From an uncultured virus (IMG/VR IMGVR_UViG_3300033417_000007) (Duplodnaviria; Heunggongvirae; Uroviricota; Caudoviricetes), in the IMG/VR virus record IMGVR_UViG_3300033417_000007: DNA of 64,000 nt; one strand, written 5' to 3'. The position numbers and the translations under genes were made by a program. Shown here piece by piece: positions 13,618-35,934 of the stretch; position 1 is the first letter of the stretch, and each line of letters starts with the position of its first letter. The notes beneath the pieces are model-generated. The model was not told the origin of the DNA. It saw nothing but the letters and a program-made list of their open reading frames with translations, and made no database searches.

Positions 13618-15075
13618 ATGCTGGCTGAAGAGGTCAAGACGGAGCGGCTCTTCCGCGGATACCGCGGAACATCCGACACCATCGACCGGATGCACAAGCT
13701 GGTCCAGCAGGCGAAGCTGGATCCGACGATGCATAGGATCGCGACCCTCATCCGACTGTCGGTTCCCCAGGATCCGCGGGGCTCCTCGAAGGAGACGGCC
13801 GACGCGATCTTCAACTGGGTGAAGAAGCACGGCTGCTTCCAGCGCGACCAGTTCCAGATCGAGCGGGTGGAGCATCCGATCAGCTCCATGCAGACGACGA
13901 TCAAGGCGCGCCAGAACGGCGTCGACACCAACGGCAAGCTCTTTGTCGGGGACTGCGACCAGTACGGGATCTGGGTCGCGGCGCTCGGGGGCATCCTCGG
14001 ATTCCAGTACGCCTTCGAGACCTCGAAAAGCGACCTCGAGCGTCCCGACGAGTTCTCGCACGTCTGGGCGGCGCTCCGCGTGGGCCCCGAATGGATCGCC
14101 TACGACGCCTCCACGCCGAGGTCCGAGCCCAACTGGAGGCCGCCGATCACGGGTCCCGACAAGTTCAAGCGGTGGCCCGAGAAGGAAATCGAACGGACGC
14201 TGTCCGGATTGGGGGACGCCGTGAAGGGTGATGTTCCGTTCATGGTACCGCGCGAGTACTTCGGCGCCGGCGACCCCGCCGGCGTCGACGACCCGATGAC
14301 GAGTCTCGAGCCAAACCCGGGCGAGATCGACATGCTCATTCCTCCGGAGCCGATGAATCCGGACGAGAACTTCGGTGACGACTACCCGCGCTTCTCGAAG
14401 GAAGAGGTCGAGGCGGCGTCCCACCGGATGAGCCTGATCACGAACACCGACACGGGCCCCCATTACGCCCCGGCCGGTCGGCCCTCCTACTTCAAGGTGC
14501 AGAAGCGGATGTACCCCAAGGGGTCGCTCTGGAACCGCCAGGAGGTCAGCCGTGTCGATCGGGCGACCGGCGAACCCTACTTCAAGGTTGATCCCTCGAC
14601 GGTACCGTCCGAGGAGGTCGAGGTCGGCATGGTCAGTCCCGTCACGGTCGTCGAGCGGGACGGCCGGCCGCATGTGGTTCGCCGGGACATTCGGAGCGAA
14701 CTCATCCTAAGGAGACCGAAGATGCACCCGGCAGGAATGGGCGCCACGATCCCGACGAGCGTCGCGATCGCAAGTGGAGTGACGGCGGCCGACGCGGGCG
14801 TGAAGGCCGTGACCGAGTCCAAGAGCGTCTGGGACACGATCTCGGACGTCTTCAAGAGCGTCGCTCCGGCTGCGGCGGACGTGCTTTCGGCGAAGTACGC
14901 GCCGAAGGTCGCGGACGCCACCAACCGCGTGGCCGGCGGTCAGGTGATCACCGCCCAGGCCTACATCCAGAAGCCCTGGTATCAGCAGACCTGGGTTTGG
15001 ATGGGCGCCGCGGTTGTCGCGGCCGGCTTCGGGGCGATGGTGATGCTCAAGCCCGCCAAGAGGCGTCGTCGGTAG
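13618..15075 (+). CDS. Transglutaminase-like (Cys-His-Asp) enzyme, putative virion maturation protease, with C-terminal membrane anchor
   Basis: GDCDQ, FSHVW and YDAS in the first ~190 aa; ends in a hydrophobic helix plus KPAKRRRR. Confidence 0.8.
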   Translation: MLAEEVKTERLFRGYRGTSDTIDRMHKLVQQAKLDPTMHRIATLIRLSVPQDPRGSSKETADAIFNWVKKHGCFQRDQFQIERVEHPISSMQTTIKARQNGVDTNGKLFVGDCDQYGIWVAALGGILGFQYAFETSKSDLERPDEFSHVWAALRVGPEWIAYDASTPRSEPNWRPPITGPDKFKRWPEKEIERTLSGLGDAVKGDVPFMVPREYFGAGDPAGVDDPMTSLEPNPGEIDMLIPPEPMNPDENFGDDYPRFSKEEVEAASHRMSLITNTDTGPHYAPAGRPSYFKVQKRMYPKGSLWNRQEVSRVDRATGEPYFKVDPSTVPSEEVEVGMVSPVTVVERDGRPHVVRRDIRSELILRRPKMHPAGMGATIPTSVAIASGVTAADAGVKAVTESKSVWDTISDVFKSVAPAAADVLSAKYAPKVADATNRVAGGQVITAQAYIQKPWYQQTWVWMGAAVVAAGFGAMVMLKPAKRRRR

Positions 15076-15078
15076 CCG

Positions 15079-15300
15079 ATGGACACGATCGTGGGACCTC
15101 TGACCGACCAACTCGTCGCGCGGATCCTTCCTCAGATGAAGGACATGGTCGCGCGCGCGGCGGAAGGCGCGGAGCCCACGATCCGCAAGGTGGTGATCGA
15201 GGAAGTGCTCCCGAAGTTCGGGGCCGCGACGGTGCTCGGGATGGTGGCCGGCGCGATCGGCGCGGCGGCTATCGGGTCCTGGTTCGCGACGAGGCGATAG
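15079..15300 (+). CDS. Small tail-anchored membrane protein
   Basis: C-terminal Gly/Ala hydrophobic helix followed by RR. Confidence 0.8.
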   Translation: MDTIVGPLTDQLVARILPQMKDMVARAAEGAEPTIRKVVIEEVLPKFGAATVLGMVAGAIGAAAIGSWFATRR

Positions 15301-17514
15301 ATGAAACTCGTGAAGGGGTCTGCGGCGGCGAAGGCGCACATGGCGCGCCTGCGCGCGATGGCGGGGAAGCGCCGCAAGGCGGTTCGCCCCGTGACCGGCG
15401 CCCCCAAGAGGAAGAACCCCTACTCCGTGACGGGGGAGTGGTTCGAGCCTGGGTTCGTCATCTGGGACACGCCGGTCCAGGCCGAGGCCTACAACGCCGT
15501 CCGCGTGCTCGCTGACAACGACATCCCCGCGCACGTCGAAGCGGCGCCGGGGGATCCGAAGAAGTTCGGAAGCTGGGTCTACAAGGTCCACATCGACCGT
15601 CCCGAGGACTCGACCACCCGGATGATCGCCGAAGGCGCGCTCAACCGGATCGCAAGCGAGTCGATCAAGGGGCGCATGATGGGCGAATGGTCGAGCATTC
15701 CGCGCCCTCGTGCGCCGCGGCGTGGCCGCCGGCGGGTGGCTCTCCCGAATCCCCGGCGCCCGAAGATCGACCCGATCGACCGCGCGATCGAGCAGGCCTA
15801 CTACAGGGTCGCGAGCGGCGTCCAGGTCTCGATCATGGACATCCCGAAGATCTTCCGCGACGCGAAGACCCTGCTCGCCGGAGGCCGGACCGACATCGAC
15901 CAGGTGCTTATCGAGGTCGTGAAGAGGTATCAGGTGGCCGGCACCGGCGGACGGATTCTCAACAACCCGCATGGCGCGCGCGGAGCCTACTTCATCATCG
16001 ATCCCGTGACGAACAGGATCCTCTGGATCGTCCGCGGGCATCCGATGCACTCGTTCAACAATTCGGTCAAGCTCGCCACCGAGGCCGCGGCGAAGCTCGG
16101 TCGCAATGTGGTTCACGTCGTCCACCCTTACGTACCTGCCGGCTTCAAGAAGGGGACGGAGGTGACGCCCATCTTCTACCACTACGGGTCCAACACCGTC
16201 ACGCCCGAGGGGAAGATGTTCAAGACGATCTACGACAACCCCCCGGCCTTCTTCTTGATCGACGCCCAGAACGGGAAGATTCTCGAGATCTTCAAGGGGC
16301 ATCCCGCAAAGACATTTAAGAAGTCGGTCGACATCGGGATGTTGGAGGCGGCGAGAACCGGTCGCCCCGTCATTCACGTCGTTCACCCGCGCGTCCCCGC
16401 CGGCTTCAGGGTCGGCCACGCCGTCTCGCCGATGTTCTACCACTACGGGGCGAACATCATTTACCCAGACGGTCGCATGGTGAAGCGGAACCCGAAGTTC
16501 AAGGCCCGCTTCACGGCTTCCGACGGTGTCGAGATGCGCACTGAGACGTTGTGGGCGCGCAGCGCCCTCAAGAAGGCCGATCGCATGACGCTCGACATGC
16601 CGGCGCAGTTCAGGGGGCCGCGCTCCGAGATCGAGGTCACGCGCTGCAACCCGCGCGGCTGCAAGAACCCGGGGCACCGGCACGCGCGGAAGAATCCGTC
16701 CGGCTGGTCGCCGATCGGACTGTTCACGTCGACCGAGGCGACGTCGGTGGCGGACCGTCTTCGCGCCGCCGGGATTCAGGTGCGCGCTTATGAGACGGTA
16801 CCAAACCACGTCACCCTCACGGTTCCGTCTTCCATGCGCCGCGCGGCCAGGGCACTCATCGCGCGCAAGAACCCGCTCATGCAGGTGGTGACGCTCAAGA
16901 ACCCGAAGCGCCCCCAAGCCTCTCGCTCTGTCCCGTTCGATGTTTACCTGGATGGAAAGAAGATCGACACGGTCTTCGCGGGACCGAAAAGCGATGCCGT
17001 TGCCGAAGAAGTTCGACTCTCTCTCATCAACCACGACGGCTACGATCCCAGGATCGTCGTTCGCCGGCGCGGCGGGAAGGCGGGGTCGCGACCCGTTCGA
17101 AAGAACCCGGTCGGAAAGATCCCGTTCCGCCACGGCCAGATCATCACGGTCGCGCAGGCGCTCGCCTGGGCCAAGCAGACCGGAAACACCTCGCTCGTCA
17201 AGCAGTGCGAGCAGGCGATCGCGCTTTGCAAGAAGGCGAACGGGCCGGCCCAGAAAGTCCGCTTCGATCTCGTGCAGATGGGCGACCCCAAGAAGATCGA
17301 GTCGGTGATGGCCGGTGTCGAGTACGGCCAGACCGACGAGACCGTCTACAAGCCGACCAAGGGCTCGAAGAAGGGTCAGCACCTCTACCGACATGAGTGG
17401 GGGGAGGGCAGCGGGAAGCGCAAGCCCGTGCCGCTCATCGCTCCGGTCGGTGGGAAGGCGCTCGTCATGCCGCTCGGAAGTCGGCAGACCGCCGGAGATT
17501 GGTTGAGAGGATAG
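15301..17514 (+). CDS. Basic modular protein punctuated by 11 Asn-Pro motifs; putative core polyprotein
   Basis: 737 aa; repeated (R/K)NP; internal duplication of about 85 aa. Confidence 0.85.
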   Translation: MKLVKGSAAAKAHMARLRAMAGKRRKAVRPVTGAPKRKNPYSVTGEWFEPGFVIWDTPVQAEAYNAVRVLADNDIPAHVEAAPGDPKKFGSWVYKVHIDRPEDSTTRMIAEGALNRIASESIKGRMMGEWSSIPRPRAPRRGRRRVALPNPRRPKIDPIDRAIEQAYYRVASGVQVSIMDIPKIFRDAKTLLAGGRTDIDQVLIEVVKRYQVAGTGGRILNNPHGARGAYFIIDPVTNRILWIVRGHPMHSFNNSVKLATEAAAKLGRNVVHVVHPYVPAGFKKGTEVTPIFYHYGSNTVTPEGKMFKTIYDNPPAFFLIDAQNGKILEIFKGHPAKTFKKSVDIGMLEAARTGRPVIHVVHPRVPAGFRVGHAVSPMFYHYGANIIYPDGRMVKRNPKFKARFTASDGVEMRTETLWARSALKKADRMTLDMPAQFRGPRSEIEVTRCNPRGCKNPGHRHARKNPSGWSPIGLFTSTEATSVADRLRAAGIQVRAYETVPNHVTLTVPSSMRRAARALIARKNPLMQVVTLKNPKRPQASRSVPFDVYLDGKKIDTVFAGPKSDAVAEEVRLSLINHDGYDPRIVVRRRGGKAGSRPVRKNPVGKIPFRHGQIITVAQALAWAKQTGNTSLVKQCEQAIALCKKANGPAQKVRFDLVQMGDPKKIESVMAGVEYGQTDETVYKPTKGSKKGQHLYRHEWGEGSGKRKPVPLIAPVGGKALVMPLGSRQTAGDWLRG
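15961..16494 (+). repeat. Tandem duplicated ~85-aa domain bounded by NP motifs
   Basis: AYFIID..GHP..HVVHPYVPAGF..FYHYGSN versus AFFLID..GHP..HVVHPRVPAGF..FYHYGAN. Confidence 0.9.
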
Positions 17515-17517
17515 CCC

Positions 17518-18600
17518 ATGATCGGAATGCTCACGTTCATCAATCCCCCCCGACGGAAGAAGGCGCGTGCGCGTCTGCGTCGGGGCCGGAGAGGAGTCGC
17601 CCGCGAGGGCAAGGAGGTCTCCATGGCACGGAAGAAGTCCGTGCGCCGTCGCGGACGGCGCCGTTTGGCGCGGCGTGCGCGCCCTGTCACTCATCGGCGT
17701 CGGCGCAGCGCGTCGCGTCGTCGGCGTTCCTCGGGTCGTCGGCGTCGGCGCTCCTCGGGGCGTCGTCGTCGGATGATGCTCATGAACCCGGCGCCCAAGC
17801 GGCGTCGGCGTCGGAACCCCCTCTTCCGGTCCACCCGGACCGGTCGGTACAAGGGAGGCCGTCCGGGCCGTCGGCTCCGTCGGATCCGGCGCGCTCCCTA
17901 CGGCTGGAAGAACCCCGGCCGTCGGCGCGGCGGTCGTCGGCGCTACCGGCGCAACCCCGGCGCGATGGCGCTGCGGCGTCGGGTGAGCCCGCTCAAGGAT
18001 CCCGTCTCGGCCATCATGAACGTCTTCAAGGAAGCGTTCTCGATGGAGACGCTCGAGGCGGCGCTCCAGTCCGGCATCGGCTTCGGCGGCACCCTGGCCG
18101 GCTCGAAGCTGGTGTACAACACGCTCGTTCCGGCCTTCAACACGCAGGTCGGTCGGGTGGCGTCGGGCTTCGCCGTCACCATCCTCGAGACGCTGGTCCT
18201 CGGCTGGCTCGGCGGTCCCAAGATCGGCGCGCGGGTCCTGACCGGCGGCGTGCTCGCCACGCTGTGGCAGGGCATTTCCGAGGCCGTCCGCGGGACGCCG
18301 GCGGCGCAGTGGATTCCGACCCTCGGGGAGGGCCCGGAGGATGCGGAGTTCCGGCAGGCCATCGAGGCCGAGGTGCTCCGTGAGCTGCGTGGCGGGGGCA
18401 TGGACATGTACCTCCCGCCGGCCGGGATCTCGTACCTCCCGGCGGCCGGGTCGTCCGCCTACCTCACCGGGCGCGAGTCCGACCGGCTCCTGGCGACGGG
18501 CGTCAATGCCTACCTGACCGAGCGCGAGCTCGCGAAGGTCACGGGCATGGGCGACTCCGACGGGGAGTTCGGCGGGGCCAGTGCTCCGGAGCAGTTCTAG
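17518..18600 (+). CDS. Protamine-like Arg-rich DNA-condensing protein fused to membrane helices
   Basis: N-terminal ~150 aa of poly-Arg runs with 5 NP motifs, then 2-3 hydrophobic helices; second in-frame start at 17623 with SD AAGGAGGT. Confidence 0.85.
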   Translation: MIGMLTFINPPRRKKARARLRRGRRGVAREGKEVSMARKKSVRRRGRRRLARRARPVTHRRRRSASRRRRSSGRRRRRSSGRRRRMMLMNPAPKRRRRRNPLFRSTRTGRYKGGRPGRRLRRIRRAPYGWKNPGRRRGGRRRYRRNPGAMALRRRVSPLKDPVSAIMNVFKEAFSMETLEAALQSGIGFGGTLAGSKLVYNTLVPAFNTQVGRVASGFAVTILETLVLGWLGGPKIGARVLTGGVLATLWQGISEAVRGTPAAQWIPTLGEGPEDAEFRQAIEAEVLRELRGGGMDMYLPPAGISYLPAAGSSAYLTGRESDRLLATGVNAYLTERELAKVTGMGDSDGEFGGASAPEQF

Positions 18601-18609
18601 CGACCAAGC

Positions 18610-18725
18610 GGGAGCTCCGGCCGAAAGGCCGGAGCCTTCCCTTGGGAGGCCGCGCGTCGGCCTCCCAGGAGAAGGGTGTAGAGCCGACCCTTCGGCGGGT
18701 TTTTAGGGGGCGAGAGCCCCCGCCC
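18610..18725 (+). promoter_or_regulatory. Highly structured 5' leader of the capsid gene
   Basis: Four consecutive hairpins, two with GNRA loops (GAAA 18623-18626, GAGA 18712-18715). Confidence 0.7.
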
Positions 18726-18756
18726 GAGTCCGAGGCCGTGGTGAAAGGGACAAGTC

Positions 18757-19392
18757 ATGCCTCCCAACCCGATGGTGCCCATGCCCCCGCAGGCGACGCA
18801 GCCCTACTTCCGGATCCAGAAGGGCCTGCCCGCCGCCGTCGTCCGCTCGTACAAGCAGCCCTTGTACGACAGCGAGATCATGCTCGCGACGGACGAGGAC
18901 GCCGAGCTCGTTCTCTTCCAGAAGCCCATCGGCCAGAACCTGGCCGACGGGACGACCCGCAAGACGCTGCTGCACACGAACATGAACAATGCCGGGCAGC
19001 TGGGAACCCCCCAGAGCTTCGACGTGTTCGGGTTCAACCTGCGGCTGCTCGAGGCGTCCGAGAAGGTCGTGACGATCGCGAACTTCAACCTGATCGAGGC
19101 GGCCGGCGTCGCGATCGTGATCTTCGGGACGGACAACCCGTTCCTGCAGGTCCCGATCGAGGACATCCCGTCGGGCGTCGACACCGAGGGCCTGGGCGCG
19201 ACGGACGCGCCGCACATCGGCCTCGGCGAGAGCTCGAACTTCTACCGGTTCGACGTCGGCGGTCGGGCGCTGCACATCAACTCGACCGAGTCGTTCCAGG
19301 TGAAGCTGTCCTTCCCCTCGGGCCTGGAAGGCGTGACGGGCAACCACCTCTTCCGCTTCTACATGCGGGGGATCCTCTACCGGGGCGTCTAG
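18757..19392 (+). CDS. Putative major capsid protein, single jelly-roll type
   Basis: 211 aa with alternating beta-strand pattern (KQPLYD, LFQKPIGQ, TNMNNAGQL, FQVKLSF, FRFYMRGILY); flanked by structured RNA; fold inferred, not computed. Confidence 0.65.
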   Translation: MPPNPMVPMPPQATQPYFRIQKGLPAAVVRSYKQPLYDSEIMLATDEDAELVLFQKPIGQNLADGTTRKTLLHTNMNNAGQLGTPQSFDVFGFNLRLLEASEKVVTIANFNLIEAAGVAIVIFGTDNPFLQVPIEDIPSGVDTEGLGATDAPHIGLGESSNFYRFDVGGRALHINSTESFQVKLSFPSGLEGVTGNHLFRFYMRGILYRGV

Positions 19393-19510
19393 GCCCTGCC
19401 GAGGTGCAACTTCGGGCGCTCCCCTTCGGGGGAGCGCCACTTGATGCACGGCGGTCGGGCCCCGGCGGTGTGCCGGGGCGCTTTCCCTGCAGAGTCGGCT
19501 CGGAAAGGAG
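19393..19510 (+). promoter_or_regulatory. Structured RNA element downstream of the capsid gene
   Basis: Perfect 10-bp GGCGCTCCCC-TTCG-GGGGAGCGCC hairpin inside GTGCA/TGCAC, then GCCCCGGC/GCCGGGGC; no T-run. Confidence 0.65.
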
Positions 19511-19516
19511 CAGCGT

Positions 19517-20437
19517 ATGTCCTGGGCGCAGGTTCCCACGCTCAAGCGCAGGCCTGACGGAACGGTCTTCGTCAATCCCGAGAAGGACTACATCAGGCCG
19601 TTCGAGCTGTCCCCTGACAAGCCCAACAAGGTGGTGACGCTTGCGGCCAACCAGACGGTGGGGCCGTTCCCGCTCACCGCCAAGCACGACGGGCCGATCG
19701 AGTGCTTCTTCCAGAAGGTCGTGGTGTACGACGAGGAAGACATTCCGCTCACGGACTACAACATCGACTTCGTGCTGCAGTTCCCCACGAAGCGCAAGAT
19801 CATGTCGAACCTGCCGATCCCGCTGATCGCCTGCGCGGGGGATGCGGGGCGTCCCTACGTGCTGCCCGAGTCGATCTTCATCCCGGCGATCTCGGCGCTG
19901 CAGATCACCTTCTACAACCGGGACGCCTCCATCCGGAAGGTCGAGTTCGTGATGGGCGGCATCAAGTACTACATCAACTCCGCCCCCCAGGCCCCCCGCG
20001 CGGAGCTCGCAAGCTACCAGCAGCGCCGGGAAGCGACCTACACGTACTGGCTGACGACCGACGAACTGCCCATCCTGACGGCCAGCGAGACGGGCGCGGA
20101 CTTCTTCCTCACGATCCCCGACGACACCGACATGGAAGTCCTCAAGCTCTCCGCGGAGGCGACGGGGGCCTTCCGGGCGCTCATCAAGGACGCCGAGAGC
20201 GACCGCGCCGTCACCAACGGCGAGGCGATGCACTGCTCACTCCTCTTCGGCGGCCACGTCGCGACGGCCCTCGGGGGCGGCCTCGGCGGGTCCGGCGGCG
20301 TCTTCCCGGCCCGGTGGGCGACGTCGTACCTCGCGCGCCGGAGCGCCAAGATCCAGGTGCTCCTCGACGACCTCTCCGGATCGACGAACACGATCAAGCT
20401 CGTGTTCGGCGGGAGGAAGATCGCGTATGCCTCGTAA
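19517..20437 (+). CDS. Putative capsid protein with two tandem jelly-roll-like domains
   Basis: Two ~130-aa halves ending VEFVMGGIKYY and IKLVFGGRKIAY. Confidence 0.65.
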   Translation: MSWAQVPTLKRRPDGTVFVNPEKDYIRPFELSPDKPNKVVTLAANQTVGPFPLTAKHDGPIECFFQKVVVYDEEDIPLTDYNIDFVLQFPTKRKIMSNLPIPLIACAGDAGRPYVLPESIFIPAISALQITFYNRDASIRKVEFVMGGIKYYINSAPQAPRAELASYQQRREATYTYWLTTDELPILTASETGADFFLTIPDDTDMEVLKLSAEATGAFRALIKDAESDRAVTNGEAMHCSLLFGGHVATALGGGLGGSGGVFPARWATSYLARRSAKIQVLLDDLSGSTNTIKLVFGGRKIAYAS

Positions 20438-21176
20438 GCCGAGAACCGACTCCAGGGGAAACTCCGTTCCTCCCGGCCGCGGGCCCGGGGGCATGGGGAA
20501 TCCTTACGAAGATCGCTACTTCTACGAGGGCTATCGCGATTTCAATCGGGAGCCCAGGATCGACGACGTCATCATCGGTCCGACCTGCTCGCCGGGCGCC
20601 GCGAACCCCGAGCTCAAGAGCCGGATGGAGGCGCTCAAGTGCACCTTGAACGACGTCTTCGCCCGGCAGGTGGTCTTCACGAAGTTTCCGGCGAACTCCC
20701 AGCCTCCCTGGTTCGCCAAACCCATCATCAAATGCAAGAACATCACGATCGCGTCGGGCGGAACGGGGGTGATCTTCGACCGCGAGATCCCCGGGCGCAA
20801 CCGCGCGATCCTGACGTGCCTCGGGATCGATATCGATCCGGTGGGGGCGATCCTCGCGCAGACCTGTGAGTTCTGGTTCGACCTGGGGAACCAGGAGGAG
20901 ATCGTCGACATCTTCGACGACCAGACCGAGACGGCCTACGAGGAGGTCGATGGTCTGACGTCCGGGAAGACGACGGTCCTGCCGGGGTCGCTCGTCGTGC
21001 CGTTCAACTTCCTGGAAGCGGGCCTCCAGTTCATGATCAAGGGTCCCAAGATGCTCAGGTTCATGATGGAGAACAAGGGGCTCGAGGCCGTCACCATCCG
21101 CGGAATGATGGGGTACTACCAGTACCCGCTGCCGTATGGGGCGACCGAGTTCGAAAACGCCGACGTGATGCTCTAA
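20427..21176 (+). CDS. Putative minor capsid/penton protein, jelly-roll-like
   Basis: Beta-rich C-terminal domain ending TIRGMMGYYQYP; GGMG near the N-terminus. Confidence 0.55.
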   Translation: MPRKPRTDSRGNSVPPGRGPGGMGNPYEDRYFYEGYRDFNREPRIDDVIIGPTCSPGAANPELKSRMEALKCTLNDVFARQVVFTKFPANSQPPWFAKPIIKCKNITIASGGTGVIFDREIPGRNRAILTCLGIDIDPVGAILAQTCEFWFDLGNQEEIVDIFDDQTETAYEEVDGLTSGKTTVLPGSLVVPFNFLEAGLQFMIKGPKMLRFMMENKGLEAVTIRGMMGYYQYPLPYGATEFENADVML

Positions 21177-21186
21177 GAGGTGGACG

Positions 21187-21567: not shown

Positions 21568-22671
21568 ATGGCCGAATACCGTGGCGGTGGAGGTCTTGGC
21601 GGAGAGGTCGTAGCCTCCATCACGGTCCAAAATCTGACCCCCGACCGCCTGGTCTACGCCGACGCTACGAAGAAACTCCAGAGCGTCGATCCACTCACCT
21701 CCTGGGTCGCCGGTACAAGCGATCAGGTGACCGTCGCCGACGACGGGGACGGGACCATCACGATCAGCCTGCCGAGCGCGATCATCACGCCTGGGACGCT
21801 CACGGTGACAGGGCACACGACGCCGCAAGCCAACAATACTTACGATCTGGGCGGCAGCAGTTTCGCATGGCGCAACCTGTACGTGGGGACGCAGATCCTC
21901 GCGGCGAATGGGAGCGCGGGGGCGCCGAGTCTCTCCTTTTCCGGGGATCCGGATACCGGGTGGTTCTCCAACGGAACGAACATCATTACCGTCTCCACCG
22001 GCGGGACAGGGAGGTGGACATTCAATGGCTCCGGGCACATGTTGGCTGGCTCCAACAATGTCTACGACATCGGCGCCAGCGGCGCGAACAGTCCGCGGTC
22101 GGTGTATGTGGTGACGAGTCTATTCATCGGTCCCAAAGAGTCTGGAGTAATTTCCCCGCAACTCGGCCTCTATCATGCGGGGCAGCCTGTTTTCGTGGTG
22201 AGAGAAACCGGCAGCAACATCGAGCTAGCTCTTTTCTGCACTACCGCAAACTGCTACGTGAGTGCGGCGACACCGAATGATCTCATCTTTAGGACCTCCA
22301 ACACGGATCGATGGAGGATCGTAAATTCTGAAGTCGGCTTGTGGGCTGGCGCTTCTACCCGGACGATTACCGGCGGTGTCTCGGACGGTTACGTCTCGGG
22401 TGTCCGGCTCTCACCGACGTACGACGCGGCCACCGCGCAGACGGTCACGCGGCACAACTACATCGACGTCGAAGACGTCCTCCTGACCGGCGCGGGCCCG
22501 GCGGCCGTGACCGACGCCTGTGTGTTCCGCTTCAACGCGGCGGCGGGAACGCACAAGGCCCTTGCCGGGGCGAGCACGAAGACGACGCCGGGCGCCTGGG
22601 ATGCGGCGGTCAAGATCAATGTGAATGGGACAATCATGTACATCCCCGCCTATACGAGTCCGACCGCATGA
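21568..22671 (+). CDS. Fibre/spike-like virion protein
   Basis: Gly/Ser/Thr-rich; NTYDLG/NVYDIG repeats; GSAGAPSLSFSGDPDTG fibre motif. Confidence 0.75.
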   Translation: MAEYRGGGGLGGEVVASITVQNLTPDRLVYADATKKLQSVDPLTSWVAGTSDQVTVADDGDGTITISLPSAIITPGTLTVTGHTTPQANNTYDLGGSSFAWRNLYVGTQILAANGSAGAPSLSFSGDPDTGWFSNGTNIITVSTGGTGRWTFNGSGHMLAGSNNVYDIGASGANSPRSVYVVTSLFIGPKESGVISPQLGLYHAGQPVFVVRETGSNIELALFCTTANCYVSAATPNDLIFRTSNTDRWRIVNSEVGLWAGASTRTITGGVSDGYVSGVRLSPTYDAATAQTVTRHNYIDVEDVLLTGAGPAAVTDACVFRFNAAAGTHKALAGASTKTTPGAWDAAVKINVNGTIMYIPAYTSPTA

Positions 22672-23246
22672 GCACGAGAACTCTCACCCTCCTCCTCCTG
22701 GCCGTAGTGGTGCTCCCGGCGTGCGGGGATAGCTGGCCCGGTTACCCCGGGGTTCCGACGTCGCTGACCACTCCCGCGGGGAAGGCTTACACATTCCGGA
22801 ACCTCGGGTCGGTCGAGCGGTACGGTGAGGCATGGATCGGCGGCTGGGTGGACATTGCCATCGAAGAGGCTGTCGCAAAGATGGTCGGCCTTGGAGTCTC
22901 AGAAGCAAACGCTAGGCATGCGATAGGGTCCATCGGCCTAACTGCCATCGACGACTACGCCTACCCGGAGAGAGCGAGCCCCACCGGCTGGGCGGCGGGC
23001 ACGTATGCATACGGGCACATTGTCGTCGCCTTTTGGACGAGGAAGATTTCCCGCACCTTGGATGACGACATCCCGGAGTGGACCTATCGGGATGACGAGC
23101 CCAAAGGCCCGCGGTGGGGTGTTGTCCCGCTGGCTTGCCCCGCGCTGGGGCATGAGTTGGGGCATCATTTCTTTGGGGGTGGGTTTGAACACCGGCGTCG
23201 TTGGGTACTGGTTTTAGCGCCGGAGTCGGCGGTGGGTGCCCCGTAA
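22668..23246 (+). CDS. Lipoprotein with HExxH zinc-metallopeptidase motif
   Basis: MSTRTLTLLLLAVVVLPA-C lipobox; GHELGHH; ATGA overlap with the upstream gene. Confidence 0.7.
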   Translation: MSTRTLTLLLLAVVVLPACGDSWPGYPGVPTSLTTPAGKAYTFRNLGSVERYGEAWIGGWVDIAIEEAVAKMVGLGVSEANARHAIGSIGLTAIDDYAYPERASPTGWAAGTYAYGHIVVAFWTRKISRTLDDDIPEWTYRDDEPKGPRWGVVPLACPALGHELGHHFFGGGFEHRRRWVLVLAPESAVGAP

Positions 23247-28128: not shown

Positions 28129-28189
28129 TCGACGTGGTACACTGGTGGCAATGCGACCGGGGTTGAACGTGATACCTGATGGAGACATC

Positions 28190-28623: not shown

Positions 28624-28633
28624 TGGAGGGAAC

Positions 28634-28939
28634 ATGGACCAGATCGACGCGAAGACGTTTCTCTTGGTCATGGCCGGGACGGTCGCGGCCATCGAAGTGC
28701 TGAAGGCGTTCCTGGCGAAGTTCATCTCAGGGAAGGAGACGGCGCTCGCGATCGTGCTGCCGGTCCTCTTCACGGTAGGGGCGAAGCTCGCGGGCTTCTT
28801 CCCGGCCACGGAGTGGGTGGACGCGCTTCTGTGGGCCGTCGGAAGCGGCGTCGGGGGCGGCGTCGCGCACGACAAACTGCTCGATCCGGCCAAGAACATT
28901 CTCGCGAAGCTCCTTCCAAAGAAGCCTCCCGCATCGTAG
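28634..28939 (+). CDS. Holin-like membrane protein
   Basis: Three hydrophobic segments and a basic C-terminus; 101 aa. Confidence 0.65.
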   Translation: MDQIDAKTFLLVMAGTVAAIEVLKAFLAKFISGKETALAIVLPVLFTVGAKLAGFFPATEWVDALLWAVGSGVGGGVAHDKLLDPAKNILAKLLPKKPPAS

Positions 28940-28988
28940 GATGGGGGTGTCGCGGGAGGGTTTCCGGGAGACGGTACAAGGAGGATTC

Positions 28989-29237
28989 ATGGTCGGCCGA
29001 ATGATCGCTCTTTTCGTCGGCGTAGTGCTCATTTCGGGGTGCTGCAGCTTCCCGGTTGAGGCCGGGTCCATGCGGGACCTCGAGGAGAAGCAGGGGAAGT
29101 ACTTCGCGAAGTACCTCGGGTACGTCGAGAAGGATCCGGCGCTCTCGGACCCCCAGAAGGACGACGAGAAGAAGGCGGTCGAGGCGATCATGCGGCAGAC
29201 CGAGTCGCTGCGCAAGTCGATCGAGGGGGAGGACTAG
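28989..29237 (+). CDS. Small lipoprotein
   Basis: MVGRMIALFVGVVLISG-C lipobox. Confidence 0.75.
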   Translation: MVGRMIALFVGVVLISGCCSFPVEAGSMRDLEEKQGKYFAKYLGYVEKDPALSDPQKDDEKKAVEAIMRQTESLRKSIEGED

Positions 29238-29240
29238 CCG

Positions 29241-29612: not shown

Positions 29613-29620
29613 GAGGTTTC

Positions 29621-30724
29621 ATGCTTTACGGTCTGGGTGCCTACGAGCGCGAAGCGATCCACATGATGCCCGACACGGTCAAAATGATCGTGCTCGAGGA
29701 ACTGAGGGACCCTTCGACCCGGGCCGAGATGGTGGAAGTCCTTCGCTCGCAGGATCCGGTCGGCGCGGTCCGTCGCGGGATCTCGATGGCCGTTTCCGAT
29801 GGTCTGCGCGAGGGACAGGTCGAAGCCCAGACCGGGATGGCGATCTACGACGACGGGATGGGAGGCCTTTTCAAGAAGATCAAGAAGGCCGTCAAGAAGA
29901 CCGTGAAGAAGGTTGTCGCGCCGATCAAGAAGATCCACGCGAAGATCACCCCGAAGTTCGCCGAGAACCTCCGCAAGAAGGTCTCCGGCTCGATGAAGGA
30001 CATCCACGAGAAGCACAAGGATCTCGCCAAGAAGATCCGTCGCCAGGGGAAGCGCGTCTTCGTCAAGTACGGGCATGTGATCTTGCCGGTCGCCGGCATC
30101 ATCCTGGCCCCCTTCACGGGAGGCCTGAGCATCGCGGCGGCAGGGGTCGCGGGCGCCGGCCTCGACGTCTACAAGAAAAAGAAGGCCTACGACGAGGCGG
30201 TCCGGCAAGGGAAGAAAGACACGGCGGTCCTGGCTGCCGAGGTCGCCGCCGAGGAAGCCGCCGTCAACGCCGAGGCGGACGCCATCTACAACGCCTACCC
30301 GATTCCGTTCCAGTCGATCGGCCTTTCCCCGGACAAGTGGGCGGCGCTGTCGGTCGAAAGGAAGGTCGAGATCATCAACGCGCTCTCGAAGGGGAATCTT
30401 CCGGCCGGGTACAGCTACGTCTCGGAAGCCGAGGCTGTGGCGGCAGGAGTCGCCCCCGCGCCGCAGGAGCCCGCGAAGCCCGCGCCTTACGATCCGGTGC
30501 CGGCTTATCAGCCGCCGCCCCCTCAAGTCTACGCGCCACCTCCTCCCCCCGTCTACGTGCAGGCGCCCCCTCCGACGGTGGTCTATGCCCCCGCGGCAGA
30601 GAAATCCGAGTCGGCGGTGGCCGTGCAGGAGGCTCCCGAGCCCCAGAAGAAAGGCGGCATCGGCTGGGGATTGCTCGCGATTCCCGCCGCAGTCGTGGCT
30701 GCGGTCGTGGCTTCGAAATCGTAG
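29621..30724 (+). CDS. Membrane-anchored virion protein with a Lys-rich amphipathic segment (entry/pilot candidate)
   Basis: YGLG and DGMG|GLFKKIKKAVKK; internal TM; Pro-rich linker; C-terminal TM. Confidence 0.8.
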   Translation: MLYGLGAYEREAIHMMPDTVKMIVLEELRDPSTRAEMVEVLRSQDPVGAVRRGISMAVSDGLREGQVEAQTGMAIYDDGMGGLFKKIKKAVKKTVKKVVAPIKKIHAKITPKFAENLRKKVSGSMKDIHEKHKDLAKKIRRQGKRVFVKYGHVILPVAGIILAPFTGGLSIAAAGVAGAGLDVYKKKKAYDEAVRQGKKDTAVLAAEVAAEEAAVNAEADAIYNAYPIPFQSIGLSPDKWAALSVERKVEIINALSKGNLPAGYSYVSEAEAVAAGVAPAPQEPAKPAPYDPVPAYQPPPPQVYAPPPPPVYVQAPPPTVVYAPAAEKSESAVAVQEAPEPQKKGGIGWGLLAIPAAVVAAVVASKS

Positions 30725-30734
30725 GAGATCTCCG

Positions 30735-31292
30735 ATGTCCACCACCTATCCGGAGCCGTCGAAAGAGGTCGTCGCAAAGGCGATCTCGAGTGCCGTCGTT
30801 GCCGACTTCAAGCGATACCCTTCGATCGGACGCCTGATCAGCCGCGCGAGGATGAGTCCCAACGCACTCCGGAACATCATGTTTCGCGACATTGAGCGGG
30901 ACGTGAAGAGGGCGCCGGGGAGGCCCCTCTTCCCGTCCCTCCGGAAGGTATTCCGGACCCAGATGAGGGTCGAGGGGGCGAAGCTCCGTGGGGGCCTCTC
31001 CCAGTGGGCGGATCTTGCCGGCGCGATCGCCGGAGCGGCGAGCGGCATCGTCGGCGCGAAGATCACGGCCGAGGGGAACAAGGATCTCGCGAAGGTGCAG
31101 CTCAAGCAGGAGGCGCTCGCCCTTCAGGCCGCGCAGCTGCAGGCGGACGCCGCCCGACTCAACCTGGCCGCGGCCCAGGGGGCCCCGTCGGCCGCGACTT
31201 CCTCGGGCGCCGCGAAGTACATGATCCCCGCCGTGATCGGCGCGGGGGTCCTCGTGGCGGGCGGCGCGGCCTACATGATGATGCGGAGGTAG
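30735..31292 (+). CDS. Tail-anchored virion membrane protein
   Basis: LRGGLS motif, Ala/Gln-rich helix, C-terminal TM plus RR. Confidence 0.8.
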   Translation: MSTTYPEPSKEVVAKAISSAVVADFKRYPSIGRLISRARMSPNALRNIMFRDIERDVKRAPGRPLFPSLRKVFRTQMRVEGAKLRGGLSQWADLAGAIAGAASGIVGAKITAEGNKDLAKVQLKQEALALQAAQLQADAARLNLAAAQGAPSAATSSGAAKYMIPAVIGAGVLVAGGAAYMMMRR

Positions 31293-31294
31293 TC

Positions 31295-32335
31295 ATGCCG
31301 TTCTACGCGCCGCCCAAGAGGGTGAGATTCGGACGCGGGGTGCCGTTCGCCGGGATGGCGGACTGGGGCGCCGCCGCCGTCGGCTTGATCGCGGACAAGG
31401 AGCTCGGAGCTCTCATGAAGGGCGTCCGCGGCCTCATCGACAAGTTGATCTCGCTCATCGGGGCGAGGGGCGCCATCCTCGACGGGTACAAGGTCGCCCA
31501 TGCGCGCTACACCTCCGCGCAGGCCAAGTTCGGACCGCTCCTCATTGCCGGGCCGATGGGGATGACACAGAACGTCCTTCTTCTTCCCTTCGCCTCGGCC
31601 TACGCGACGGCCCAGAAGGGCGTCAAGGTGCTCGCGCGCGAAGTCCAGACGATCGGGTTTCTCGATAGGATCTTCACGCAGATCTCCGCCGCCCTCACCC
31701 AGGCCGGGCTCTCCTCCGACGCGAACGCCATCGACCAGGCCGTCGCGCAGATCCGCAGGTTCGCGATCGAGACCGACGACCTCTTCTTCCCGATCCCGGA
31801 GTACATGCAGACGAAGAGGTCGATTCTCACCGAGGGTGTCCCCATCTGGCGTTCGCTCGGGGTGGGGGCGACCGCCTATGACGATCCCAAGTGGATGGCC
31901 GGCTACCTCAAGGCCGCAAACGCTGTGGTCCCCGTTGAGGGGGCTCCGGCGGCTCCGGCGGACCTGCAGGCCGCCGGCATGGGGGCGCTCCCGATCATCG
32001 CCCAGATGATCCTCTACGTGATCGTGATCGTGTCGGTCGGGATGTCGCTCGCGAGCGCGATCTCGCGCGTCATTCCGAACCAGAACGCGAAGGCCGAGAC
32101 CGCGGAGAAGCTGCTGCTTGAAGCCCAGAAGCAAAAAGCGAAGGAGGCCTCCCAAATGCGGGCGGCCGGGGCGTCCGAAGCCCAGATCGACGCCCGCATG
32201 GCGGCCATCGACACGGAGGTCGCCCGGGCCGTGAGCACGGTTCCGGACGCGCCGTCCCTCTTCAAGCCCATGATCGCCGTGGCTGGCGTGGTCGCGGCCG
32301 GATACGTGGCCGGGAAGGCGACGGGGGTCCTCTAG
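31295..32335 (+). CDS. Virion membrane protein
   Basis: AGMA and AGMG motifs; internal and C-terminal TM. Confidence 0.8.
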   Translation: MPFYAPPKRVRFGRGVPFAGMADWGAAAVGLIADKELGALMKGVRGLIDKLISLIGARGAILDGYKVAHARYTSAQAKFGPLLIAGPMGMTQNVLLLPFASAYATAQKGVKVLAREVQTIGFLDRIFTQISAALTQAGLSSDANAIDQAVAQIRRFAIETDDLFFPIPEYMQTKRSILTEGVPIWRSLGVGATAYDDPKWMAGYLKAANAVVPVEGAPAAPADLQAAGMGALPIIAQMILYVIVIVSVGMSLASAISRVIPNQNAKAETAEKLLLEAQKQKAKEASQMRAAGASEAQIDARMAAIDTEVARAVSTVPDAPSLFKPMIAVAGVVAAGYVAGKATGVL

Positions 32336-32336
32336 C

Positions 32337-33635
32337 ATGGCGCCCGCGATCGACAGCCTCCGGGCCGTGCCGGAGATGGCCGTGCGGCTCCTCTGCGGCG
32401 CTTCGGTGAAGAAGTCCGGGGAGTCGGTCGTCGTCTCGTTCCAGGGCGAAGCCTTTGAGTGTCCGCTTACGGTATTCAACTACGCCTGCCAGATCGCGAA
32501 GATCCTCTCGATCGACCCCTCGCCTGTCCAGACGATGAACGACGTCCTGCGGCTGCGGCACAGGGCCGAAGACCACTTCGTGCAGATGTTCACGCTTGGA
32601 GACAAGAAGCTCCCGAAGGTGCTTTTCCTGCCGGCCGGCGAGATCGCGAGCGCCTTCTACCGGGCGCGCTTGCCGGCCGACATCCTGACTGACCAGGGGC
32701 GCCACGTTGCCCACTTCACCGAGCGGATCGACGCCATGAAGGTCCTCTACTACGAGGTGCTGTGGGTGCAGCTGGCCTGCGCGCCGATGCTTCAGAGCAT
32801 GGTCGGCCGCGTGAAGGAGGCGGGCGTCAAGATCATCTACGATGTGGACGACCGCTTCGACGTCATCCCCGACGAGAATCCCGCCGCGAAGATCTACGTC
32901 GAGCAGAAGCTCCAGTCCGTCTGGTCGATGATCAAGATGGCCGACGCGGTCTCGGTGAGCACCGAACCGCTCGCCGCACACATCCGGAAGTTCCATCCGA
33001 ACGTCCACGTCATCCCGAACGAGGTGACCGCCGCGATTCATCCGACCCGAGAGCGCAAGCCCAAGGACTTCGTCAGGATCCTCTGGGCCGGAAGCTACAC
33101 CCACAAGCGCGACCTGCGCGTGATGGCGCCGGGACTCAAGAAGGTGCTTGAGCGTCATGCCGGGAAGGTCCGCTTCACCTGCTTCGGGGACGTCCCGCCC
33201 GAGGCGCTCCACGGGGTGGAGCAGTACGTCGACCGGTTGCCCTTCGTCGGCTTCGTCGACTACGCAGAGGCCCTTGCGGGCGTGGACGCGGACATCGCGG
33301 TCGCGCCTCTTGAGGCGAGCGAGTTCAACGCCTCAAAAAGCGCCGTCAAGTACCTCGAGTACTCCGGGTGCAAGTACCCGTCGCTCCTGTCGCCCGTGGG
33401 CGAGTATACGGGACTTCCGAAAGGCGCTCCCCTTATCCATGTGAATGACGGGGAGTGGGAGAAGGCCCTCGAGTACGCGATTGGAAGCCCGTCCGAGATG
33501 GCGGCGCTCGGGGATCGCGCGAACGAGTGGGTTTCGTCCAACCGGTGCATCATCAAGTCCGGCGCTCGGAAGTGGGGGGAGCTTGTGGACGGTATCCTGT
33601 CGAACTCAAAAAAGGCCACGGAGGTGATCTCGTGA
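32337..33635 (+). CDS. GT-B (GT4-like) glycosyltransferase
   Basis: YRARLP, IIYDVDD, VSVSTEPLA, VIPN, WAGSYTH, FNASKSAVKYLEYS. Confidence 0.88.
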   Translation: MAPAIDSLRAVPEMAVRLLCGASVKKSGESVVVSFQGEAFECPLTVFNYACQIAKILSIDPSPVQTMNDVLRLRHRAEDHFVQMFTLGDKKLPKVLFLPAGEIASAFYRARLPADILTDQGRHVAHFTERIDAMKVLYYEVLWVQLACAPMLQSMVGRVKEAGVKIIYDVDDRFDVIPDENPAAKIYVEQKLQSVWSMIKMADAVSVSTEPLAAHIRKFHPNVHVIPNEVTAAIHPTRERKPKDFVRILWAGSYTHKRDLRVMAPGLKKVLERHAGKVRFTCFGDVPPEALHGVEQYVDRLPFVGFVDYAEALAGVDADIAVAPLEASEFNASKSAVKYLEYSGCKYPSLLSPVGEYTGLPKGAPLIHVNDGEWEKALEYAIGSPSEMAALGDRANEWVSSNRCIIKSGARKWGELVDGILSNSKKATEVIS

Positions 33636-34120
33636 GACTCAAAGCCTCTCCCTTCCAGTATCCCGGATACGTCCACCCCGCGTCGGACAAGGCGGCCTTC
33701 CGGGCCCAGCAGGAAGCTTGGAAGGCGTCCCTCAAGGCCCAGCAGGAAGCTCGGAAGGAGGCCTTCCGGGCCCAGCAGGAAGCTTGGAAGGTGTCCCTCA
33801 AGGCCCAGCGGGATGCGGCCGAGGCCCAAGAAAACGCTAGGCGTGCCGCCCTCAAGATTCAGCGGGAAGCCAAGATGGATCAGGAGAGGGAGCGAAAGGA
33901 GGCCGAAAAGGCCCAGAGGAGTGTGGAGAGAACGTTCCAGCACGCCCGCGGGAAGATCAACGCGCGCTTCGGCCGCTTCATCTCCCAAGGTGTCCGCGAG
34001 GCCAAGGAACTCAGGCGTAAAGGGGTTCCGTTCGGCCATGCGGTCCGCGCGATCGCGAGGGCCGCGGCCAGGCGCGGTGTCGAAGAGACGGGCATGGGAT
34101 GCCCGTGCGACGGGAGGTAG
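33632..34120 (+). CDS. Coiled-coil protein with 11-aa tandem repeats, ending TGMGCPC
   Basis: Four K.(A/S)(F/L)(R/K)AQ.. units from a 33-bp DNA repeat at about 33690-33812. Confidence 0.7.
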   Translation: MRLKASPFQYPGYVHPASDKAAFRAQQEAWKASLKAQQEARKEAFRAQQEAWKVSLKAQRDAAEAQENARRAALKIQREAKMDQERERKEAEKAQRSVERTFQHARGKINARFGRFISQGVREAKELRRKGVPFGHAVRAIARAAARRGVEETGMGCPCDGR

Positions 34121-34123
34121 GCG

Positions 34124-35245
34124 GTGAGTTCCCTTTCGGACGGCCTCGAGGATCTCGTCCTGTCGGCAAGCGCCTTCGGCGTCACCGTCGAGGGGCTGAA
34201 GAACCCGTCCAAGTTCGCCGAACGGACCGGCCTCAACAGGGCAGAAGGAAAGGGGGCTCTCGTAGGGCATACGCTCGAGTTGGCAGTGCCTGAGGACCTC
34301 AGGCAGTTCGCCTCCGGACATCAGGTGGTGGGGCGCGGTGGGAAGGTCAAGGAGACCTTCGAAGACCCTTACCTTCGCATCTCCCCGAAGCTTTCCGTCG
34401 ACTACATCCGGACGGAAGACGGCGCGAAGAAGAAGTTCGTCATGGGCAAGTCGACCCTTTTCACGAAGACGACGAAGATGTCGGCCGCGTCGTGGTCGCT
34501 CCCGGCGGGCCCCCGAAGCATCTCCGGCACCTGTGCCGCGGCCGAGATCTTCAAGAGCCCTGCGGCCTATGATGTGGCGCTTCGCCAAGGCGACGTCGAG
34601 CAGCGCGCGCCGAATCCGAAGACCTGGATCTATGCCTATTGTTATGCGGGAAAGTCCAACTACATGTATCGCAACAGCCAGTACGCGCAGCTTACGCACG
34701 CGGTCTGACTCAAGGGGATGGTCGAGGGTCATGGGGTGGACGGCGCCGCGGAGGTCATGGCCGGCGCCCTGGCCGCGCACCTCGGGAACAGGAAGAGGAG
34801 GCTGGCGTTCGGAGAGGATCCGCTTTTCTTCCGGATCCACGACTCCGGGGACTTCACGTTCTCCCCGAACACCTACCTCCTCTGGAAGCTCGTCGCGGAA
34901 GATCCCAGGATGTCCGCGGTCTCCTTCTGGGCGCCCACCAGGATGTGGGTGTTCCCGCAGTTCCGCCGGATCGTCTCGGAGAACCCTCCTCCCGAAAACA
35001 TGTCCCTTCGGCCTTCGGCGCTCCACTTCAACGACCTGGCTCCGGGGATCGACGGCTTCCATGCGGGATCGACGGCGCACACGAAGGGGACGGATCCCGT
35101 TAGGGATGGAATCGCCCAGTGGGTTTGTCCCGCGTACCAGCACGACGGAAAATCCTGTGCTGGCGGCGGGGGTCCCCAGCGCGAGAAGGATTGCCGCGCG
35201 TGCTGGAGCTACAAGGACACGGAAGTCTCCTACTTGGTCCACTGA
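34124..35245 (+). pseudogene. Gp88-like Cys-rich protein interrupted by an in-frame TGA at 34706-34708
   Basis: SWSLPAG..TC, CYAGK, FRIHDSGDF, FWAPTR and CRACW all lie in one frame across the stop. Confidence 0.75.
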
Positions 35246-35246
35246 T

Positions 35247-35528
35247 ATGAATCCGCTTGTTTCGAAGTTCGAGAAGTTCAACCGAGGCCTGTCCGTCAAG
35301 AACCCTCCTTCGATGAGAGGCGAGGACGACATCACGTCCTTCCTTCGCGTGCTGGACGCGTCCGGGGAGATCGGGAAGTTTTCCGAGGGGGACTGGATCG
35401 AGTTCGGGAAGCGAGAGGGGATGAGCGACCTCGAGATCGTCGAGCTCATCGAGCAGGCGGCCGGGTGGGTGCCCAATACGGACACCGGCCGACGCATAGA
35501 GGCCGCCGCGTGGACGAAACTCTCCTGA
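35247..35528 (+). CDS. Hypothetical protein containing MNP and KNP
   Basis: Protein-like C-terminal part of the track ORF 34338-35528. Confidence 0.65.
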   Translation: MNPLVSKFEKFNRGLSVKNPPSMRGEDDITSFLRVLDASGEIGKFSEGDWIEFGKREGMSDLEIVELIEQAAGWVPNTDTGRRIEAAAWTKLS

Positions 35529-35577
35529 GAACCTTGCGTGGGCATCGTTGTCCGCATAGAATATAGGCGAGGTCGCT

Positions 35578-35934
35578 ATGAAACGAAGGCTATCGGAAAG
35601 GCAGCTCCAAGCCGCCAGGCGCGTCACCGAGATGGTTCGCCGGCGCGGCTATCATCCGCTTGCGGCCAGGAACTTCGTCATCGACGCGATCAAGCGCGCG
35701 CGCGACGTAAAGGACGGGATGGGTCAGGATCTCTTCGAGGAAGGCGAGCCCGAGAAGAACATCCTGCAGAGGGTGTCGGAACTCGAATCCGTCAAGATGG
35801 TCCGCGAGTCCATCAGCCCCTGGCTCTGGGTGACGTCGGTGGTGGGCTTCGGGATGGCGCTCATGAACTCCCGCCGGATCGCGCTCATGTTCGGCAAGTG
35901 GAGGGCCAAGCAGCCCAAGGCAAAGACCGCATGA
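35578..35934 (+). CDS. Membrane protein with a helical leader and DGMG motif
   Basis: GAGG SD; C-terminal TM and basic tail. Confidence 0.8.
   Translation: MKRRLSERQLQAARRVTEMVRRRGYHPLAARNFVIDAIKRARDVKDGMGQDLFEEGEPEKNILQRVSELESVKMVRESISPWLWVTSVVGFGMALMNSRRIALMFGKWRAKQPKAKTA

Follow-up and report, generated by a model that had tools for sequence, protein, structure and literature searches.

A candidate tethered thiol protease and a recurrent G-[M/L]-G motif in the structural genes of an uncultured virus with a predicted double jelly-roll capsid protein

Here we describe a putative Cys-His-Asp enzyme, encoded at 13618-15075, and a short G-[M/L]-G motif that recurs in proteins encoded nearby, in the uncultured virus IMGVR_UViG_3300033417_000007 of IMG/VR. 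The stretch analysed comprises 64,000 nucleotides with a G+C content of 64% and is referred to as the window; genes and their products are named by the first coordinate of the gene. A rightward gene block (about 10.99-38 kb) is flanked on both sides by leftward arms, which encode an SNF2 helicase, an NYN-domain protein, a single-stranded DNA-binding protein (SSB), a UvrD-type helicase, an integrase, a PD-(D/E)XK nuclease and at least six glycosyltransferases. Among the 29 rightward proteins, 3 have a Pfam match (E <= 0.01) and 6 a PHROGs match. These matches include no capsid, portal, terminase or protease family, and no phage prohead protease profile (serine types: HK97 gp4, T4 gp21, ClpP) from either collection matched any of the 29. 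An earlier note, made from the letters of the window, had proposed that a self-releasing, membrane-tethered protease matures virion proteins at a shared motif; all motifs that it listed (GDCDQ, SHVW, YDAS, LSGLG and AGMG in the enzyme, and those in seven further genes) are indeed found in place.

In the protein database the enzyme gene sits on a contig of 65,919 bases, hence the window covers almost all of the element, leaving out the final 1.9 kb of the contig. Eight related loci are found in IMG/VR; five whole records (68-73 kb) are classed there as having direct terminal repeats (4) or as linear (1). Further related loci come from a metagenome collection (35) and a species-genome collection (one contig, in a Thermoanaerobaculia metagenome bin). 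The comparison of downstream genes covers seven relatives (whole records), and the gene order of the structural block is common to the window and its relatives. Searches of GenBank phages with the enzyme and with the capsid protein (tblastn) gave no match, and the ESM Atlas yielded weak leads only.

The AlphaFold2 (AF2) model of the 19517 protein consists of two jelly rolls (mean predicted local distance difference test, pLDDT, 84.8; predicted template modelling score 0.83). Its structural matches are the capsid proteins of STIV (Z 10.9, 235 residues aligned), PRD1 (P3, Z 9.9, 244 residues), PM2 (P2, Z 8.7), FLiP (Z 8.1), PBCV-1 (Z 8.1) and phiCjT23; Foldseek also returns PR772 and PRD1, and cellular GH172 look-alikes match as well (Z 11.8). 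The double jelly-roll capsid protein makes the element a 66-kb member of a new bacterial-virus lineage with that capsid fold, and the lineage, with genomes of 66-73 kb, is previously undescribed. Judging from gene order, the capsid fold and hydrophobic anchor-like segments, which hydropathy places in at least eight proteins of the structural block, the products of this block would be virion proteins. A literature search (supplements outside its scope) found no description of this virus lineage or of a phage transglutaminase-like maturation protease.

Fold and family of the 13618 enzyme

The enzyme gene directly follows an intrinsic-terminator-like hairpin, as the earlier note had it. The AF2 model of its product was computed with an alignment of 32 homologues (36-64% identity), hand-picked from 56 with short-contig and partial entries mostly omitted. 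The model consists of a confidently predicted domain (residues 10-197, ten-residue block means mostly 74-96) that ends at LSGLG, a disordered region (residues 199-388, pLDDT < 50) and helices (385-476). Cys113, His148 and Asp163, together with their contexts GDCD, SHVW and DAST, are invariant in the 32 homologues; the Cys-His-Asp triad proposed in the note holds, and the model gives residues 1-195 the transglutaminase-like fold that it had suspected. The proposed membrane tether is supported by a hydrophobic helix followed by RRRR, the tetrad with which most homologues end as well. A pattern P-W-Y..W..G-G preceding a hydrophobic helix is common to this C-terminal anchor (14980-15075) and to another structural-block family of the related loci, that of 39742 in G001, and may represent a shared targeting signal.

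A Foldseek search of the enzyme model against the PDB returns transglutaminase-like proteins as top entries throughout, each with E > 0.001. An exhaustive structural aligner (VIA-align) ranks the putative protease 3kd4 highest (Z 12.8, 146 residues aligned, root-mean-square deviation 3.3), and further matches are factor XIII (Z 10.2), TG3 (Z 9.7), TG2 (Z 9.6), PNGase (Z 9.5), the putative cysteine protease 3isr (Z 9.5), the proven protease LapG (Z 8.9), the viral pseudomurein isopeptidases PeiP (Z 8.8) and PeiW (Z 8.4) and the CPR-C4 protease (Z 7.3). We regard it as settled by the model that the enzyme adopts a transglutaminase fold with the papain-like order Cys-His-Asp. Chemically, it could act in proteolysis or cross-linking, or else as an amidase or wall isopeptidase.

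The family is large and unannotated. A word-indexed search returned the 56 homologues mentioned above, none with a functional name and several on contigs of 66-75 kb, and an exhaustive profile search gave 1654 cluster representatives at E <= 0.001, 400 of them at <= 1e-10. PF01841 is matched by 7 of the 32 aligned homologues (best E 1.2e-5), and one homologue carries a precomputed PF01841 hit. The enzymes of distant loci are highly divergent (27-37% identity): those of L053, L054 and L055 are only 172-176 residues long, and those of L056, L059 and L063 have G-L-G or G-M-G directly after the domain and a hydrophobic C-terminus.

One homologue belongs to a cultured phage. Gp34 of Salisaeta phage SSIP-1 (L070, 21296-22210; 304 residues) is annotated as a structural protein, with no function given in the record. 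It matches the catalytic-domain profile (hmmsearch E 1.5e-10), retains the Cys-His-Asp triad and has RARGMGEP 45 residues after the domain as well as a C-terminal hydrophobic segment. By its sequence, gp34 is thus a transglutaminase-fold Cys-His-Asp protein of the window enzyme's family, and it provides the sole cultured link. In a Foldseek search of BFVD, the enzyme model best matches an unnamed viral protein of likewise 304 residues (E 7.8e-9); from the equal length we infer that this entry is gp34.

The G-[M/L]-G motif at the enzyme and in the structural block

The motif accompanies the enzyme itself. G[ML][GSN] occurs within 40 residues after the domain in 45 of the 56 homologues, and G[ML]G occupies the AGMG position farther along the linker, again in 45 of 56, with GVG, GMA, GMS or GME in the remainder. 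A larger set of 192 proteins (the best 150 of the profile search plus the first 56) contains 184 that match the domain profile and 179 with a complete domain end. Within 45 residues after the domain, G[ML]G is present in 55 of 78 close homologues, all of them extended (3.0 expected by shuffling the extensions), and in 45 of 79 distant homologues with at least 60 further residues (4.9 expected). Taken together, 100 of 157 extended homologues carry the motif after the domain where about 8 are expected, while 21 of 101 distant homologues consist of the bare catalytic domain. Two positions ahead of the first Gly, 52 of these 100 self-sites have M (27), L (13), V (6) or I (6) (background of Met 2.8%), and the residue following the motif is often D (25) or Q (11).

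In the window, the broad motif G[LM][GAS] of the earlier note is not significantly enriched (24 observed, 17.3 after shuffling, P = 0.07). The core, G-[M/L]-G, is what withstands the comparison, including that between rightward and leftward proteins: GMG has 8 copies in 8 different rightward proteins (1.57 expected) and 1 copy in leftward-arm proteins (about 1.3 expected). Among all tripeptides GMG ranks third, behind RRR and KNP, and alone it would not survive correction for multiple testing. Based on gene calls from a crude caller using G+C at third codon positions (GC3), the observed and expected numbers of G[ML]G in the structural block are 16 and 6.8 in the window, 15 and 5.7 in G001, 14 and 5.8 in G002, 19 and 7.8 in G003, 12 and 6.0 in G004, and 14 and 5.4 in G005. 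The corresponding numbers for the rest of each genome are 3 and 6.3, 8 and 7.6, 6 and 5.3, 4 and 6.2, 9 and 8.0, and 5 and 6.1. The motif is therefore 2-2.5-fold over chance in the structural block of six genomes, with no such enrichment elsewhere in them; since the six are related, the counts reflect retention of the motif and not independent events. GIG, GAG, GSG and GVG show no consistent excess across the six. Beyond this group, the distant locus L056 has 10 G[ML]G (3.3 expected), and instances occur in L055 and L063.

The note had also seen a likeness to the adenovirus protease consensus. This fits the self-sites only, with their 52 of 100 hydrophobic residues. Over 89 block sites no hydrophobic preference is found two residues before the motif, and matches to the consensus in the window are no more frequent than expected (18 observed, 16.5 expected). 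The residue following the motif at the 89 sites is most often D (20), A (14) or G (12).

Positional conservation is found for several block families in addition to the self-sites. Among 20 families present in at least five of eight genomes, 12 conserve the broad form at one or more sites and 8 have none; in about 10 of the 20, judged by eye, the site is kept amid varying leaders, tails or linkers. In the 20427 family, G-[M/L/V]-G closes a leader of 10-36 residues in 15 of 15 sequences; 14 of 16 further homologues keep the site, one gene call starts at the motif Met, and one lacks the site. Of 15 sequences of the 17518 family, 14 have G-[M/V/I]-G 15-20 residues from the C-terminal end and one has VVGVG; a conserved acidic tail follows, and a second motif G-M-[G/S]-A-Y-L-T lies further upstream. 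The 29621 family retains the N-terminal YGLG and the later DGMG in 7 of 9 members each; a homologue search with 29621 returned only the query, low-complexity words having swamped the candidates. G-[M/L/V]-G stands at the place of DGMG in 7 of 7 members of the 35578 family, and the site is kept in 5 of 5 members of a family of 86-residue proteins. Relatives of 30735 have GLS, GLG or GMS in 5 of 6 cases. A G-M-G followed by a Cys-rich stretch, as in 33632, also occurs in the G002 and G003 proteins of the 35578 family. Conservation of AGMA and AGMG of 31295 could not be confirmed: its positional orthologues have [A/S/G]-G-[M/L]-G-[D/Q] in 7 of 7 cases, and MAFFT, in a weak alignment, pairs this site with LGVG of the window protein. 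The Gly-rich loop of 19517, considered as a further site, is a low-confidence loop and uninformative.

A second conserved short motif is Asn-Pro, often [K/R]-N-P. It occurs 11 times in the 15301 protein (2.0 expected) and 5 times in the 17518 protein (0.5 expected), and the excess recurs in the homologues of all seven relatives (5-16 per protein, 0.4-3.2 expected). From sequence, it could be a DNA-binding, cleavage or modification site.

Table 1. Coordinates of the enzyme gene, its parts and the structural-block genes discussed
Feature	Position	Strand	Remark
Intrinsic-terminator-like hairpin, 18-bp stem, T run	13564..13603	+	just upstream of enzyme gene
Enzyme gene, 485 residues: transglutaminase-fold domain, disordered linker, helical region, membrane helix, RRRR tail	13618..15075	+	
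Folded catalytic domain, residues 10-197	13645..14208	+	AF2, alignment
Triad Cys113; His148; Asp163	13954-13956; 14059-14061; 14104-14106	+	invariant in aligned homologues
GDCDQ; SHVW; YDAS	13948-13962; 14056-14067; 14101-14112	+	in enzyme gene
Self-site 1, LSGLG, at fold end	14200..14214	+	pLDDT drops from residue 199
Disordered hypervariable linker, residues 200-371	14215..14730	+	AF2, alignment
Self-site 2, AGMG, about 10 residues before C-terminal helical region	14731..14742	+	G373 at least 90% conserved within variable linker
Hydrophobic helix (residues 458-478) and RRRR tail, putative membrane anchor	14989..15072	+	hydropathy, AF2, alignment
Basic protein, 737 residues, 11 Asn-Pro motifs	15301..17514	+	no G[ML]G in window
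Arg-rich protein, hydrophobic middle, GGGMD	17518..18600	+	candidate site TGMG 18541-18552, 15 residues before C-terminus
Most conserved capsid-module protein, 62-74% identity	18757..19392	+	GLG motifs within conserved core
Major capsid protein, double jelly-roll fold	19517..20437	+	AF2 and structure matches
Capsid-module protein	20427..21176	+	candidate site GGMG 20487-20498 ends basic Pro-rich leader of variable length
Membrane protein; also TGMA	29621..30724	+	candidate sites YGLG 29627-29638 and DGMG 29852-29863, the latter just before Lys-rich FFKK segment
Tail-anchored protein	30735..31292	+	GGLS 30990-31001 at junction with Gly/Ala-rich part
Membrane protein, AGMA and AGMG	31295..32335	+	LGVG 31856-31867
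Basic protein	33632..34120	+	TGMG 34088-34099, 6 residues before C-terminus, then Cys residues; tentative
Tail-anchored protein	35578..35934	+	DGMG 35713-35724

Several other genes of the window deserve mention. An open reading frame (ORF) of 192 residues at 22668-23246 (+) has a lipoprotein-type signal (LPAC) and the zinc-peptidase motif HELGH and, by these features, may encode a lysis or accessory enzyme; a DUF1570-like protein at 42730-43356 (-) has the motif HEVTH. Both HExxH genes were considered as a common processing enzyme and rejected, because neither has a homologue in the seven relatives. A small protein with two or three membrane segments (28634-28939) adjoins another with a hydrophobic N-terminus and a lipobox-like LISGC (28941-29237, +), and the two may form a lysis cassette. 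The GP88-like gene (PF17338) consists of two ORFs in the window (34124-34708 and 34718-35245, +) and of one ORF of 367 residues in G003; in G001 and G004 it has a different place and the opposite strand. Glycosyltransferase genes number at least seven over 46207-61711 (-) and 32337-33635 (+). The latter, in the structural block, is kept in all seven relatives (42-47% identity), and the target of glycosylation is likely either particle proteins or the host surface.

Candidate proteolytic maturation and its alternatives

A tethered enzyme whose flanking motif recurs on neighbouring particle proteins suggests maturation of the particle by cutting. The enzyme would act as a thiol protease whose short recognition sequence centres on G-[M/L]-G and frequently takes the form [M/L]-x-G-[L/M]-G-[D/Q]. 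It would cleave itself at LSGLG and/or AGMG, releasing a free domain of about 195 residues, and would trim leaders, tails and linkers of 17518, 20427, 29621, 30735, 33632, 35578 and perhaps 31295. We consider this the most economical account of the data and give it somewhat better than even chances. Papain-like enzymes usually prefer a hydrophobic residue two positions ahead of the scissile bond, and on this ground the bond would lie after the second Gly; an adenovirus-type reading would instead put it before the second Gly, and the data fit both. The annotation of SSIP-1 gp34 is the one observation that would place the enzyme system in the particle.

A number of results weigh against this account. 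For none of these proteins has a cleavage product been observed. The window enzyme has no match to Pfam PF01841, and the profile of its family finds no match among PDB sequences. The transglutaminase fold also houses cross-linkers, PNGase, acyltransferases, wall isopeptidases and non-enzymes, among which a fold search cannot choose. The enrichment amounts to only 2-2.5-fold in six related genomes, and the count of about 10 in 20 families stands without a null model. No excess is seen in the distant loci L054 (2 observed, 2.05 expected), L059 (3 and 2.6) and L060 (1 and 1.7). The late genes of SSIP-1 have 9 G[ML]G with 5.5 expected, which is not significant (P = 0.10); its early genes have 1 with 2.2 expected, and sites lie 17-34 residues from the N-terminus in ORF36, gp37 (residues 34-36), ORF52 and gp53 (residues 31-33). 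Some copies of the motif are chance or structural core: AGMG in 21187 is not conserved, and the GLG motifs of 18757 lie in conserved core sequence and are uninformative. A complex prediction of enzyme residues 1-200 with residues 1-70 of 20427 scored 0.00 and weighs neither way.

Different readings of the same data assign the enzyme another chemistry. G-[M/L]-G might be an uncut docking or assembly signal that fits a pocket of the capsid, the membrane or a chaperone, with the enzyme serving, for example, as a particle-borne cell-wall peptidase for entry or exit. Membrane-containing phages do carry wall-degrading enzymes in their particles, PeiP and PeiW are among the fold matches, and the SSIP-1 homologue is annotated as structural; yet this would explain neither the motif that borders the catalytic domain in 100 of 157 extended homologues nor the 21 distant homologues with a bare domain, and sites 6-24 residues from protein ends suit trimming better, so that we hold this reading to be unlikely. 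We assign a still lower probability to genuine transglutaminase or amidase activity on side-chain amides, which might cross-link or deamidate particle proteins, for instance at Asn-Pro of the two downstream basic proteins, with G-[M/L]-G unrelated to it. The strong fold matches to factor XIII, TG2, TG3 and PNGase (Z 9.5-10.2) and the 5-10-fold enrichment of Asn-Pro in the 15301 and 17518 families in 8 of 8 genomes would agree with such an activity, but it leaves the conserved motif flanking the enzyme unexplained, and the microbial members of the fold that are nearest in domain size are proteases or putative proteases.

Two further readings take the enzyme, or the motif, out of the picture. 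The link between enzyme and sites consists of co-occurrence and the self-sites, and a host protease might therefore cut a real processing site in place of the viral enzyme; we think this quite improbable, since the motif keeps its place behind the catalytic domain even in deeply diverged enzymes (27-37% identity) and no other protease-like gene of the module is conserved. An artefact of Gly-rich composition, or of internal translation starts, would be in line with the non-significant broad motif in the window alone, and M, L and V are the residues of the start codons ATG, TTG and GTG. This explanation is largely refuted and retains hardly any probability: the control tripeptides show no consistent enrichment, and sites are conserved in position inside variable flanks. 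Internal starts as the cause of the M/L/V position were rejected, as TTG accounts for 1% of Leu codons and GTG for 9% of Val codons at the motif, both below background, and Shine-Dalgarno-like sequences are equally frequent upstream of motif and background sites (12% each).

If a tethered protease does trim particle proteins at G-[M/L]-G, the lineage might even run a full core maturation of the adenovirus type from unrelated parts. The enzyme would free itself at [M/L]-x-G-[L/M]-G, and at least eight membrane and core proteins would be trimmed, including the Arg-rich Asn-Pro-repeat protein, which would condense DNA. We regard this extended scheme as tentative and, on the present data, doubtful. 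By analogy with adenovirus pVIc, the conserved acidic C-terminal peptide released from the Arg-rich protein would perhaps be a cofactor.

Comparison with known viruses and proteases

SSIP-1 resembles the window in that gp34, with its homologous catalytic domain, is encoded among the structural genes of a membrane-containing icosahedral phage. None of 23 other protein families of the window that were compared matches SSIP-1. A review gives the phage two capsid protein types (PMC6356626). PRD1, PM2 and STIV share the capsid fold of 19517, and, as in these viruses, many small membrane proteins are encoded in the window's structural block. Their genomes, however, measure 10-18 kb according to a published account (PMC6260650), compared to 66-73 kb in the lineage of the window. 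A packaging ATPase of the usual type is not seen: among the ORFs of the window, none shows a Walker A of the packaging-ATPase type, and the only canonical Walker A is that of the UvrD-like helicase.

LapG, a proven protease of the same fold, offers a parallel in action. It is a transglutaminase-like cysteine protease that cuts at the small-residue motif PAAG or AAAG (PMC6890996; PMC4359373), and the first of these places the cut between a folded domain and a membrane-spanning part (PMC6890996). Fold and Cys-His-Asp triad are shared (Z 8.9). LapG itself is a cellular enzyme of the periplasm that depends on calcium, and it cuts at a di-alanine rather than at the candidate G-[M/L]-G. Membership of the LapG type is not visible in the sequence of the enzyme, which has no Pfam or PDB sequence match.

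Adenain, the poxvirus protease I7 and pS273R of African swine fever virus (ASFV) would be alike in function only: a thiol enzyme would mature internal proteins at Gly-containing sites in a virus with a double jelly-roll capsid. Adenain cuts at (M/I/L)XGX-G or (M/I/L)XGG-X, and self-site 1 of the window family, [M/L]-x-G-[L/M]-G, resembles the first of these in form. The catalytic order of adenain is His, acid, Cys, whereas that of the window enzyme is Cys, His, Asp on a transglutaminase-like and not an adenain fold, and most sites outside the enzyme lack a hydrophobic residue at the equivalent of the fourth position. Adenain is absent from the Foldseek and VIA-align lists of the enzyme, although absence alone says little. 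The analogy with adenovirus drawn in the earlier note would thus be one of function, and a partial one, because fold and triad order differ.

Tailed phages and eukaryotic double jelly-roll viruses characteristically encode a maturation protease of their own. To our knowledge, no such protease has been described for the prokaryotic double jelly-roll viruses examined to date. Within the double jelly-roll lineage, one account has the maturation protease gained on the eukaryotic branch (PMC6260650). If the enzyme described here does trim particle proteins, proteolytic maturation in this lineage would not be an acquisition of the eukaryotic branch only but would have arisen at least twice, and the enzyme would represent a new family of viral maturation enzymes that, with a different fold and a Gly-based site, provides a case of convergence.

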